Shown: positions 15,716-23,493, numbered from the stretch's first letter. The stretch: DNA of 64,000 nt from Candidatus Limnocylindria bacterium (GCA_038207785.1 JBBQZK010000004.1:3095-67094), one strand, 5' to 3'. The notes: generated by a model not told the origin, from the sequence alone. A program made the numbers and translations.

Positions 15716-18700
15716 CTAGCTGTTCGGGAGACCGAGACCCGGCTGCGACGGGCGCAGCGTCGCGAATGTCGCGATCGATGCGATCTTCGCTTCGCCGGTC
15801 GCCATGACCTTCACGCCCTGCGTCGCGCGGCCGAGTACCCGGATCTGGTCCATCGGAACGCGGATGACCACGCCGTTCGTCGAGATGAGCAGCACCTCGT
15901 CGCTCTTCTCATCGATGACCTGGATCGCCGCGACGTTGCCGGTCTTCGCCGTGACCGACGCGAGGATGACGCCCTGGCCGCCGCGGTTGTGCGTCGGGAA
16001 GTCCTCGACCTTGGTCCGCTTGCCGTAGCCGTTCTCGGTGACCGAGAGGACCTCCATCCGCGCATTCACGACGCCCATGCCGATGACCTCGTCGCCCTTC
16101 GAGAGCCGGATGCCGGTGACACCCTGGGTCTGGCGGCCCATGGGCCGCGTGTCGGTGGCCTGGAAGGTGATGGCCTTGCCCTTCTTGGTGGCGATGACGA
16201 TGCGATCCTTGTCGCCGGCCGCGGCGACCCAGGCGAGGCGGTCGTCCTTGCGCAGGAGGATCGCAATGAGGCCGGCCCGGCGCACGTTGCCGTACTCGGC
16301 GAGCGGGGTCTTCTTCACGAAGCCCTTCCGGGTGGCCATGACCAGGTGCGGGATCGAGCCGCCCTCGCGGATCGCGATGAGCGCGGAGACCCGCTCGCCG
16401 GACTGCATGGCCTCGAGGATGTTCTGGATCGGCGTGCCCTTCGCGGTCCGGCTCGCGTCCGGGAGCTCGAACGCCTTGAGCGCGAACACCCGGCCGCGGT
16501 CCGTGAACACGTACAGGCGGTCGTGGTTGCGAGCGACGACCAGATGCTCGACATCGTCCTCGTCGCGGGTGGCCATGCCGATGACGCCTCGCCCGCCGCG
16601 GTGCTGGGCCTTGTACGTCGACAGAGGCATCCGCTTCACGTAGTTGCGGGTCGAGACGGTGATGACGACGTCCTCGTCGGCGACCAGATCCTGGTCGGTG
16701 AGCTCGCGGTTGAGGTCATCGAGGATCTTCGTGCGGCGGTCGTCTCCGTACTTCGCGACGAGCTCGTCCATGTCCTGCTTGATCAGGAACAGGATCTTGC
16801 GCGCGTTTCCGAGGATCGACTCGAGCTCGGCGATGAGCTTGATGGTCTCGCGGTACTCGTCCTCGACCCGCTGGCGCTCGAGGCCGGTCAGGCGGCGGAG
16901 CTGCATGTCCAGGATCGCGCGGGCCTGGATCTCCGAAAGCTCGAACTTCTCGCGGAGATTGGCAAGCGCTGACTCCGGGCTCTTGCTCGCACGGATGGTC
17001 TTCACGATCTCGTCGATGTGGTCGAGCGCGATCTTGAAGCCCTCGAGGATATGCGCGCGCTCCTTGGCTTTCCCGAGATCGAACTCCGTGCGCCGCTTGA
17101 TGACCTGCTTGCGGTAGTCGATGTGGTGCTGCAGAACGTCCTTCAGCGACAGCGTCTTCGGTGACGAATCGACGAGCGCGAGCATGTTCAGGTTGAACGC
17201 CGACTGCATCGCCGTGTGCTTGTACAGGTTGTTGAGGACGCGCTCGGCGTTGTCGTCGCGCTTGATCTCGACGACGACCCGCATGCCCTCGCGGTCGCTC
17301 TCGTCGCGGATGTCGGAGATGCCGGCGAGTCGCTTGCCCTGCACGAGGTCGGCGATCTTCTCGATCAGGGTCGCCTTGTTCACCGCGTACGGCAGTTCGG
17401 TGACCACGATGGACTGCCGCCCGCCCTTCCCGTCCTCCACGTGGGCCTTGGCCCGCATGAGGATCCGGCCGCGGCCGTTCGCGTACGCGCGGCGGATCGC
17501 GTCCACGCGCTCCGCCGCGCCGGTCTCGATGTTCTTCTGCTCCTCGAACCGGTAGATGACCCCGCCACCCGGGAAGTCCGGACCGAGCACCGTCTCGCAG
17601 AGGTCGTCGTTGGTGAGCTCCGGATCGTCGACCAGCCGTTTGGTGGCCTCAGCGACCTCGCGGAGGTTGTGCGGCGGGATGTTGCTCGCCATGCCGACCG
17701 CGATGCCGGTCGATCCGTTGATGAGCAGGCTCGGTACGCGCGCCGGGAGCACCGTGGGCTGCATGTGCCTGCTGTCGTAGTTCGGGTACCAGTCGACGGT
17801 CTCCTTCTCGATGTCCGCGAGCAGCTCCGCCGCGATGGCCGCCGGACGCGCTTCCGTGTTGTGGCTGACGAAGCCGTTCGTGATGAAGCTGTGGTCGTCC
17901 GTGTCGACGCGCAGCGAGTACACCGGCTGCATGCCGGCGTCCTCGACCGCGTCAACGGTCGCGTAGTAGTACGTGCCGTCCACCAGCGGCTCGACGACGC
18001 GGCGTACCTCGTCGTTCGTCAGGTGCGCGAGGATCTCCTCGCGGTCGCGCTCCCATCGTTCGATGCGATCGACGTTGTGCTTCTGGAGCCACTCTCGGTC
18101 CGTCCAGCGGGCCATGCGCTCGCTGCGGATGTATTCGGCGACGAACGGCACCGCGTCCGCGCTCATCGCGGTGCTCACGAGCGGGATCTGCGCGAGCTCG
18201 CTCTCGAGCTTCTTTTGCTTCGCGCCGTGGAAGCCGACGGTCGCCGCGAACCGTCGCGCGTCGCGGCGATTGGTCAGCACGACCTTGATCTCGCCGTTGT
18301 CGTAATGGCACTGCTTGGACACGACGCCGAACTCCAGAAGGAGCAGCTGCACTTCGGTCGCGAGGCGCTGGCTGCGCGTCGAGTAGCTGACCTGGATCGC
18401 GTTCCCGCCCTGGGTACGGAGGACGGAGGACGAGCCATCACCCTCGAAGAGCGCACGCAGGAATGCCGCTTTGAAGGCAGCCGAGCCGGCCCAGACGAAC
18501 GCCGGCACGTGCTTGTCCGCGCTGCGGAGGCCGACCATCTCCGCCAAAGGGCTCGCCTTGAGAGCGGTCATGTTGTGGACGTCGAGCTCGTGCAGACGAT
18601 TCTCGGATCTGATGATCCTGGAATAGGCGTAGCGCGGGCCACCGACGATGTCGCCGTATGCGCTCGTGACCGCGTCGAAGTAGTCCGGGTCGAGGTTGTT

Positions 18701-19975
18701 GAAGCCGGCGCGACGCTCTGAGGCCCAACCCTCCGACACCATCCCACCCGCCAGCGTTGCCAACGCGAGTTCCCGTGGCGTGAGCTCGCCGATCGGGGCG
18801 CCGGACGCAGGACGACGCAGCATCGCGACCCGATCCCCGGGCGCGATCTCCTCCAGCAGCTTCCACACGAGCATCGGCACGCCTGCGAGGGGCTGGAGCG
18901 TCAACACGGGGTGGTTGGTGGTGCCGGTCAGCTCGTAGCCCTCGCGGGTGCGCATGCGCAGGGTCGGATGTGTTCCGGAGTGGAACAGCGTGTTCACGTG
19001 AACGGGCATACCGCGCCGATCGAGCACCGTGAGATCGACGGCGTTGTCGGACTCGGCCTCGGCGCCTGCGACGATGTCCGCGATCCGGACGGTCCGATCC
19101 GCCGTTCGCACGAGCGTGTCTCCTGTCGTGCAGTACCTCATATGGGCTGGTGGGTCATCATCGATCGAGTTGTGCACGAAGACGCCGGCGGCGAGCGCGA
19201 AGTTCTGCGTCACGTCGACGGTGAGGTCGTACACGTCCGTCTTCCCGGCGGGTACGACCGACGCGACGACCTGCGACAGGCTCGCGGGCACCGGGAACGC
19301 CCCCGTTCGATGGAGACGCTCGGGGATGGCCGTGCGCGCGAACGGCATGAGCTGGTCCTTCGCCTTGAGCGTGCTCGCCTCGTGATAGGTCCCGTCGCGC
19401 ATCATGAATCGGTGGTCCGGCGTGCAGACGATCTCCGCGCCGGACACGAGGGTCACCTTCACTACGGTGTCGTTGCGCTTCACCAGCCGCGGCGCGCGCA
19501 GCGGCTTGATGCGGACGTTGCGATGCGCATCGAGCGTGAACACCTCCGCGCGGACGCCGCGGTGGACCATCTCGACGAGCTCGATGAACGTGCGCTGCTC
19601 GCCGTTCACGAGCTCGACCTTCGTGTCGCCGGAGAAGCAGCCGAAGTTGCCCTGGCCCTGGATCGGCGGGTAGCGCATCGTGAAGTCCTGCGCGAAGCGC
19701 GCGAGGGCGTCGTAGATCGGCACATCACCGTGCGGGTGGTACTTCCCCATCACGTCGCCGACGATGGCCGCTGATTTCCGGAACGGCCGGTCGCTGCGAA
19801 GGCCCATCTCGTGCATCGTCCAGAGGATCCGGCGCTGCACGGGCTTCAGCCCATCGCGCACATCAGGCAGCGCGCGCGCGACGATGACGGTCATCGCGTA
19901 GTCGAGGTAGGCCTTCCGCATCTCGGTCTCGAGCTCGACGCCCACCTCGCGCTGGTCGTCCGGTCGTTCGATCAC
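15716..19975 (-). CDS. gyrA: DNA gyrase subunit A precursor containing two inteins (837-aa extein)
   Basis: N-terminus matches GyrA ([35 protein letters not shown]). The catalytic-Tyr region reads GQGNFG|intein|[12 protein letters not shown]|intein|TEARP. A GyrA-box (QHRGGRGV) and a C-terminal beta-pinwheel are present. At 1419 aa it is far longer than the usual 800-900 aa. Confidence 0.9.
17858..19132 (-). mobile_element. Intein 2 in GyrA (425 aa) with a LAGLIDADG homing-endonuclease domain, inserted after the catalytic Tyr (MRY/TEAR site)
   Basis: Strong similarity to the Mycobacterium GyrA inteins ([10 protein letters not shown]...VRIADIV...[10 protein letters not shown]...[23 protein letters not shown]). 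Internal LAGLIDADG-like blocks ([13 protein letters not shown] and [12 protein letters not shown]) are present. Confidence 0.85.
19169..19639 (-). mobile_element. Mini-intein 1 in GyrA (157 aa, no endonuclease domain), inserted between Gly112 and Ser of the GNFG/S motif
   Basis: Begins [10 protein letters not shown] (block A), has TPDH (block B), ends [23 protein letters not shown], and is followed by a Ser nucleophile. Removing it restores the conserved GQGNFGSIDGD-type motif. Coordinates come from a residue count in the ORF and were verified at both ends. Confidence 0.75.
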
Positions 19976-20496
19976 GTTCTGGCGTGCTCCTTGTGCTGTG
20001 CTTCGGCTTCGACCGCCGCGCGTACGCGCGCAAAGGCCTCGTCGGTCCGCGAGTAGCGCCGCTCGAGCTCGGCGCGGCGCTCATCGGGCATGCGCAGGAA
20101 CAGCGCTGTCGCCTCGGCGAGCACCTCGCCGTCGTCGGCGCGGGCCACGGTGCCGCTGGTCTCGATGCCGCGGCCGCGGTCCCGGAGGACCGTTCCGGTG
20201 ACGACGAGCTCCTCGCCAACGGGCACGGGCCGCTTGAAGGTGACGTTGATCTTCGCGGTCACGCCCCACACACCCTGATGGAAGATCGCCCAGCCCATCG
20301 TCTCATCGAGCAACGCCGTGACGACGCCACCGTGCAGCGTGCCGTCGTAGCCCTGGTGGCGCCGGTCGGCGGTGTACCGGGCCGTCGCGCGATCCGTGGA
20401 GACGTCGAAGTCCAGCTGCAGGCCGGTCGGATTGAGGCGGCCGCAGGCGAAGCACCAGTGCTCGAAGTCGACGCCCAGATCCAGCAGTCGCGCCAC
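19972..20496 (-). CDS. PaaI-family hotdog-fold acyl-CoA thioesterase
   Basis: 174 aa with an N-terminal HWCFACGRLNPTGLQL motif and a hotdog core (GTLHGGVVTALLDETMGWA). Its stop overlaps the gyrA start and its start abuts the gyrB stop. Confidence 0.7.
   Translation of the reverse strand: MARLLDLGVDFEHWCFACGRLNPTGLQLDFDVSTDRATARYTADRRHQGYDGTLHGGVVTALLDETMGWAIFHQGVWGVTAKINVTFKRPVPVGEELVVTGTVLRDRGRGIETSGTVARADDGEVLAEATALFLRMPDERRAELERRYSRTDEAFARVRAAVEAEAQHKEHART

Positions 20497-23493
<2,997 letters not shown>

Follow-up and report, generated by a model that had tools for sequence, protein, structure and literature searches.

Among the described systems closest to the one analysed here is the GyrA intein of Mycobacterium xenopi (198 aa, PDB 1AM2), whose site carries the label 'GyrA-a' (PMC5050341). 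Like intein 1, the element on which this analysis centers, it is a natural class-1 mini-intein without an endonuclease, it lies near the active-site tyrosine, and it has the same HINT fold (Foldseek rank 32, TMq 0.65). It differs in its site, MRY↓T (the arrow marks the point of insertion), which is 12 codons downstream, in having Thr rather than Ser as the +1 residue, and in sequence, with about 19% identity in the structural alignment. By 2015, a survey had counted 50 GyrA inteins in Actinobacteria, Aquificae, Chloroflexi and Proteobacteria (PMC4760082).

Other described systems share the arrangement or the architecture rather than the host protein. The mcm gene of T. kodakarensis and the dnaB gene of M. 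smegmatis (PMC10643990) likewise hold inteins with and without a homing endonuclease close together in an essential replication protein, although the host proteins are others. Set against these doubly occupied genes, the gyrA gene described below has the mini-intein as its fixed, older resident, and it is the endonuclease-bearing neighbor that varies among close relatives. In fold and catalytic blocks, intein 1 also resembles NpuDnaE, Mtu RecA (delta-HEN), Ssp DnaB and Ssp DnaE, which occupy other hosts and sites and are only 18-24% identical to it.

The gene in question was found in a window of 64,000 nucleotides (by 'the window' we mean this whole stretch of DNA), and the closest proteins are labelled Candidatus Limnocylindria. 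The gyrA precursor, its parts and its neighbors are listed in Table 1. Very probably, intein 1 is a splicing-competent class-1 mini-intein without a homing endonuclease at a widely occupied GyrA site, fixed and vertically inherited within its subclade, and intein 2 is a separate element.

Table 1. Position of gyrA, its exteins and inteins, and the adjoining genes in the window
Feature	Position	Strand	Remarks
gyrA precursor ORF	15716..19975	(-)	1419 aa, GTG start, two inteins; matches Pfam and NCBIfam gyrA equivalog models
N-extein of GyrA	19640..19975	(-)	112 aa; with inteins removed, gap-free alignment with solved GyrA structures
Intein 1, class-1 mini-intein without endonuclease domain	19169..19639	(-)	157 aa; family matches, AlphaFold2, Foldseek
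Cys1 of intein 1, block A nucleophile	19637..19639	(-)	
Block B T-x-x-H of intein 1 (TPDH, residues 73-76)	19412..19423	(-)	
Blocks F and G of intein 1, ending in penultimate His and terminal Asn	19169..19237	(-)	
+1 Ser of C-extein, the native Ser of GNFGS; position 111 of chain 6rks_A	19166..19168	(-)	
12-codon exon island between the two inteins (TCGATCGATGATGACCCACCAGCCCATATGAGGTAC), ending at Tyr	19133..19168	(-)	
Intein 2, LAGLIDADG-bearing, at the MRY↓T site (mycobacterial GyrA-a position)	17858..19132	(-)	425 aa
C-extein of GyrA to stop codon	15716..17857	(-)	
gyrB	20497-22614	(-)	
Small thioesterase-like ORF	19972-20496	(-)	Homologous ORF upstream of gyrA in a related contig has a 4HBT Pfam match

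The insertion point of intein 1

The GyrA reading frame matches Pfam DNA_topoisoIV (4e-140) together with DNA_gyraseA_C, Intein_splicing and LAGLIDADG_3. If both inteins are spliced, the mature GyrA is predicted to have 837 residues (1419 minus 157 minus 425). When intein 1 was searched with phmmer against all six-frame ORFs of the window, there was no match beyond gyrA itself.

The two insertion points can be placed on known structures. With both inserts removed in silico, the N-terminal domain of GyrA aligns with solved gyrase structures without a gap over either junction; in the case of 6rks_A, residues 12-221 of the spliced query are aligned with residues 10-219. By this offset, the insertion point of intein 1 falls between Gly110 and Ser111, and that of intein 2 between Tyr122 and Thr123. 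We take 6rks to be the E. coli gyrase; in E. coli GyrA the catalytic tyrosine is Tyr122, and we assume that the Tyr of AAMRY has this role here. With the insert exactly removed, a contiguous and conserved GyrA is left.

Intein 1 separates the Gly and Ser of GQGNFG↓S, 12 residues before the Tyr of AAMRY. The GyrA-a junction, between the Tyr and Thr of AAMRY↓TE, is not where intein 1 sits; intein 2 occupies it (CTTGDTLV...GFVSHN↓TEAR, 425 aa, with Thr at +1). The original prediction was thus right to separate the site of intein 1, at the G↓S of GNFG↓S and 12 codons upstream, from that of the mycobacterial intein, and right to place it beside an endonuclease-bearing intein, as the second insert matches LAGLIDADG_3 and begins 36 bp away. 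It had given the distance between the two sites as 9 residues; the actual spacing is 12 codons (36 bp).

Sequence, catalytic residues and fold

Reverse-strand translation of the intein 1 segment gives 157 residues in frame, CFSGD...AAGVFVHN↓S, directly after GQGNFG, and agrees exactly with the sequence given in the original prediction. The segment is matched by Pfam Intein_splicing (E = 1.5e-14) and by the N-terminal and C-terminal intein models TIGR01445 (1.2e-11) and TIGR01443 (6.6e-5). No endonuclease family was detected in it with Pfam or NCBIfam, its matches being to splicing domains only, whereas the Pfam match to LAGLIDADG_3 is confined to the second insert of GyrA. All of the class-1 positions are there: Cys1, TPDH at 73-76, His156-Asn157 and the +1 Ser. 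Thr73 and His76 are nearly invariant in the homologue alignment A1. Both its length, within the range of about 130-200 residues usual for mini-inteins, and the absence of an endonuclease domain from the region separating blocks B and F mark intein 1 as a mini-intein.

An AlphaFold2 model of intein 1 was built from a 12-sequence alignment. The model has an all-beta HINT fold (mean pLDDT 90.6, pTM 0.85) in which the two halves are joined by a linker of about 36 residues; the model is weaker in a single stretch, residues ~101-120 of this linker (pLDDT of about 77), where an endonuclease would sit. When the model was compared with the PDB using Foldseek, ranks 1-29 were all inteins. The best matches are NpuDnaE, the Mtu RecA splicing domain, the Ssp DnaB mini-intein and Ssp DnaE, with E-values of 1e-9 to 1e-8 and TM scores of 0.72-0.83. 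Exact translation, splicing-domain models, AlphaFold model and Foldseek ranking all bear out the earlier identification of a 157-aa Hint-only mini-intein without an endonuclease, and the profile search of the segment returned Intein_splicing, TIGR01445 and TIGR01443 alike.

Base composition gives some indication of age. The GC content of intein 1 (0.677) and its GC3 (0.94) equal the values of the host gene, which is consistent with long residence.

Occupancy of the site in other genomes

To find other inteins at this codon, species-representative genomes were scanned for the pattern GGN CAN GGN AAY TTY GGN TGY, that is, G-(Q/H)-G-N-F-G-Cys, in which Cys is demanded at intein position 1. The scan gave at least 120 stretches. 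Among those listed, an intein occupies exactly this codon in 72 gyrA genes, which were recognized by the upstream YHPHGD context and a Cys-initiated insert after GNFG; the remainder (48 of the 120) are chance matches with no reading frame. For 60 of the at least 72 gyrA loci, the DNA examined contains the whole intein. These inteins range from 139 to 526 aa, and every one of the 60 ends in ...HN↓S, mostly as xG(V/I)FVHN, with S(I/V/M/L/Q)(D/E)xD...RY following in the host sequence. All of the inteins listed begin with Cys1, as the pattern demands, and in most of them F(S/T/A)xDT comes next.

The inteins listed at GNFG↓S come from at least 10 bacterial phyla and several archaeal lineages. Chloroflexota hosts include Anaerolineales, the cultured strain Oscillochloris trichoides DG6, Chloroflexaceae, Ktedonobacterales and Limnocylindria; Gammaproteobacteria are represented by Thiocystis and Competibacteraceae; and further bacterial hosts are Saccharibacteria, other Patescibacteria, Omnitrophota, Planctomycetes, Elusimicrobiota, Acetothermia, Acidobacteriota and Armatimonadota. 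The archaeal hosts are Woese-, Pace-, Nano- and Micrarchaeota, Diapherotrites, Methanoperedens, Methanosarcinales and Nitrosotalea.

The original prediction regarded this insertion point as rarely or never described. At least 72 gyrA genes of species-representative genomes, one of them from a cultured strain, hold an intein at this codon. The site is thus commonly occupied in public data, and the claim of rarity is not supported; on sequence data, this largely amounts to the refutation that the original prediction had set for itself. As for its description in print, a full-text literature search found, among the papers covered, none that names or describes the GNFG↓S GyrA site. Orthologous gyrA genes carry an insertion at the same codon both in Limnocylindria relatives and in the wider set of at least 72 loci.

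Mini forms of 139-199 aa are found at GNFG↓S in at least 17 loci, and the large forms are of about 391 and about 520 aa. Examples include inteins of 520 aa in Oscillochloris trichoides DG6, 153 aa in a Thiocystis violascens MAG, 145 aa in Candidatus Competibacteraceae, and about 391 aa in many Saccharibacteria, Patescibacteria, Omnitrophota and DPANN genomes. All have the same insertion codon and +1 Ser as intein 1. Most, however, are large, with a central HNH-like region and helical repeats where intein 1 has its linker. The Limnocylindria forms stand apart as a subgroup of 157 aa whose members share at least 72% identity.

In the large forms (L001, L003, L029, L043, L045 and L073; 391-526 aa), the HNH-like motif can be read by eye as RHHxDFNKLNNNPxNIxRMxWKEHW. 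The motif is followed by W-x-(D/N)-P-x-(Y/F)-R-x-x-M helical repeats, whose number varies and accounts for the size classes of 391, 466, 496 and ~525 aa. Pfam barely detects either feature, giving one weak HNH_3 match in the large same-site inteins, and it finds no LAGLIDADG in them. Intein 1 would be the endonuclease-less form at a site where the large forms carry an HNH-type motif, and the mini form may descend from an HNH-bearing ancestor at GNFG↓S.

The same part of GyrA holds further inteins. An intein at GNFG↓S is combined with one at MRY↓C in four other loci (L044, L052, L113 and L116). A third GyrA intein, ending in ...(I/M/V)(V/I/L)(S/A/V)HN before C(L/M)G(K/H/N)(Y/F)HPH, is present in L027, L031, L043, L055 and L120, about 35 codons upstream of GNFG. 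Thus, some gyrA genes carry as many as three inteins at a distance of no more than about 50 residues from the active site.

Relation to other inteins

Similarity to intein 1 extends well beyond GyrA. An exhaustive phmmer search of 1.84 billion representative proteins returned 3616 matches at E <= 1e-3 and 1472 at E <= 1e-10. The top 150 are mostly multi-intein proteins with a related intein at other sites, for example after KVDHPKTG, LDMRYNPL, VEGDSAGG or RYDKIILM. By pattern, a GNFG↓C junction is present in 7 of the 143 newly returned proteins of the top 150, a count that leaves a few earlier-numbered Limnocylindria fragments unscored; the junction in P0160 is GNFS↓C. Of the NCBIfam models, the one that best matches the N-terminal half of intein 1 is NF052663, which describes an intein-containing RtcB family (E = 7e-27). 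Since related inteins are found at many sites and in many hosts, intein 1 belongs to a large, promiscuous clade.

Compared with the other GNFG↓S inteins, intein 1 is 34-48% identical in the N-terminal part and 50-87% identical in the last ~25 residues. Inteins 35-50% identical in the splicing domain are also found at many other sites and in many other hosts. Identity of about 40% was considered as proof of a single GNFG↓S allele family and rejected, equally similar inteins being present at many other sites. A shared site and similarity are for that reason no proof of common descent.

Mini-inteins with the ending NFALAAG(V/P)(F/I)VHN↓S were also observed in other hosts (P0034, P0037, P0039, P0214 and P0273). 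The one in P0034 follows a TOPRIM-like ...ILEGGSAMG↓ junction, and those in P0214 and P0273 follow GyrB-like EGDSA(GG)↓ junctions. With both GyrB-like and GyrA junctions in evidence, the same intein clade occurs in both gyrase subunits, in different organisms.

History of intein 1 in Limnocylindria

Within Limnocylindria, the history of the mini-intein can be followed through relatives that are mostly metagenome-assembled genomes or fragments. A 157-aa intein at the same codon, with no change of length, is present in all eight genomes compared (the window, L116, L052, L032, L048, L077, L005 and L033). Among these eight, identity is 72-94% for the intein and 75-97% for the extein, and the two are correlated with r = 0.91 over 28 pairs that are not phylogenetically independent. 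The dN/dS of intein 1 (Nei-Gojobori) is 0.06-0.22 in pairs with at least 79% intein identity and 0.28-0.45 in pairs with L033, the most distant member, with similar values for the flanking extein throughout. These ratios are approximate, as a dS of 0.4-0.9 nears saturation in a genome with GC3 of about 93%.

A second set of relatives was obtained by querying a collection of 5.8 billion proteins with the spliced N-terminal 223 residues of GyrA and taking the best 120 matches. Intein 1 is present in the top two (P0040 and P0041) and in P0046, P0071 and P0107 among the best 120 listed. The best-scoring intein-free GyrA fragments among these 120 are at most 74% identical to the query, which is taken as the limit of the intein-bearing clade; some of them are labelled Limnocylindrales or Limnocylindria.

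Constant length, divergence in step with GyrA and low dN/dS indicate, at the level of sequence comparison, that intein 1 is an old, fixed and vertically inherited element under purifying selection in a Limnocylindria subclade. The simplest reading is that the intein was acquired once, long ago, then lost its endonuclease and became fixed in the subclade, and has since descended vertically under selection for splicing.

Some individual relatives deserve comment. L005 (DASPWX010000019.1) is titled Candidatus Bathyarchaeia archaeon, has a GyrA about 78% identical to that of the window and shares its 157-aa mini-intein; the contig appears to come from Limnocylindria and to have been binned with an archaeal MAG. 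P0042, a single read-derived GyrA fragment reading GHGNVG↓...↓SIDDD, has a mini-intein with residues ~5-130 deleted, through decay of the allele or else as an artefact of assembly. A candidate for a full-length, HNH-bearing Limnocylindria version (P0023, on ENA scaffold L121) was rejected, as it contains a run of N and a frame switch. The scaffold has Limnocylindria gyrA and the N-terminal half of the mini-intein, then a different intein-like sequence and, further on and in another frame, RtcB-like (GSGNHFIEV...HSGSRGVGN) and aminotransferase-like sequence. Probably, the assembly joined unrelated pieces by way of related intein sequences, so that the scaffold is a chimera.

The neighboring intein and the exon island

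Intein 2 has a different distribution. Its presence was scored in close relatives with a readable downstream junction. It is present in the window, L116, L052, P0003 and P0009, of which P0003 and P0009 form a more distant sub-branch that also has it. Intein 1 alone, with intein 2 absent, is found in L005, L032, L033, L048, L077, P0002, P0005, P0007, P0040, P0041, P0046, P0071 and P0107. Near-identical relatives are among those without intein 2 (P0041, P0002 and L032), and the exteins of P0041 are almost identical to those of the window, yet it has no intein 2. Among the matches listed, no close relative was seen with intein 2 and without intein 1. Its patchy presence, never alone among the matches listed, implies that intein 2 is younger or still mobile and entered alleles that already had the mini-intein. 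Such patchiness would be expected if the intein were still homing or in the course of being lost.

The 12-codon island between the inteins has the lowest GC3 in gyrA, 0.58 (7 of 12 codons ending in G or C), compared with 0.88-0.94, or about 0.93, in all other parts of the gene. Of the ten 12-codon segments of gyrA with GC3 of 7/12 or less, nine overlap the island. The low value is less marked in relatives, whether or not they have intein 2. It may reflect a co-conversion tract that came from the intein 2 donor, or else a constraint imposed by the target of the homing endonuclease.

If it were a co-conversion tract, the anomalous codon usage of this 36-bp exon would also fit a mini-intein that is itself still mobile, co-homing with the LAGLIDADG intein 36 bp away, and the spread of an endonuclease-less intein together with its neighbor has been discussed (PMC10643990). 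In close relatives with a readable junction, however, the mini-intein occurs by itself in more cases than beside intein 2, no close relative among the matches listed has intein 2 without it, and the divergence of the intein tracks that of the extein, which argues for vertical descent. We therefore hold co-homing to be very improbable and retain the view of intein 1 as a fixed, vertically inherited element.

Splicing and retention

The class-1 splicing pathway is the established basis for the steps proposed here. After translation, Cys1 of intein 1 would carry out an N-S acyl shift, the thioester would be attacked by the +1 Ser (transesterification), and cyclisation of Asn157 with the help of His156 would release the intein; an O-N shift would then leave the native GNFG-S peptide bond. 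With intein 2 splicing as well, full-length mature GyrA would result. That intein 1 splices is predicted from its motifs, its modelled fold and its conservation.

Absence of the homing endonuclease is also what one might see in a decayed HINT remnant that no longer splices and is tolerated as part of mature GyrA. Decay of this kind is hard to square with catalytic positions that are all intact and conserved over the Limnocylindria clade, or with an intein dN/dS as low as that of the extein. Such a remnant would moreover break the invariant GNFGS 12 residues from the presumed catalytic Tyr, in a segment that is gap-free in solved gyrases. As the insert splits GNFGS so near that Tyr, a permanent 157-aa insertion is very unlikely to be tolerated, and we consider a non-splicing remnant extremely improbable. 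An insert that failed to splice at this distance from the active-site Tyr of GyrA would, we infer, be lethal. A splicing mini-intein would thus be kept intact because failure would inactivate an essential enzyme.

A further question is whether splicing is conditional. Intein 1 is fixed and about as conserved as GyrA, and Cys72, beside block B, is nearly invariant in alignment A1; the mini-intein might then be kept as a redox- or metal-responsive switch, acting through Cys1 and Cys72 and tuning gyrase under stress. Sensor roles of this kind have been proposed for replisome inteins (PMC4760082; PMC7360933). Purifying selection is, however, equally expected from the need to splice, a Cys beside TxxH is common in this broad intein family, and no evidence specific to regulation was found; we think a conditional switch unlikely. 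It is compatible with the preferred reading of a splicing-competent mini-intein, to which it adds a function. That intein 1 has been co-opted as a gyrase splicing switch (for example, a redox or metal sensor with Cys1 and Cys72) and is more than a trapped parasite seems quite improbable.

Significance

The original prediction was right about the identity of intein 1 and wrong about its rarity: judged by its sequence, this is an ordinary and apparently functional mini-intein, and environmental bacteria and archaea widely have inteins at its site. Alone it matters little. It is a well-behaved instance of the life cycle that inteins usually follow: invasion, fixation, endonuclease loss and long vertical retention under selection for splicing. 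As a compact natural mini-intein of 157 aa with Ser at +1, it could be a modestly interesting part for protein engineering.

The site has wider implications. Annotation models derived from the mycobacterial GyrA intein fail to cover the GNFG↓S point: the alignment of NF038098 (GyrA_w_intein) with the gyrA precursor starts only at residue 232 and so misses intein 1. In GyrA, a region of about 50 residues around the active site holds at least three points of intein insertion, and the one at GNFG↓S is occupied in both prokaryotic domains.
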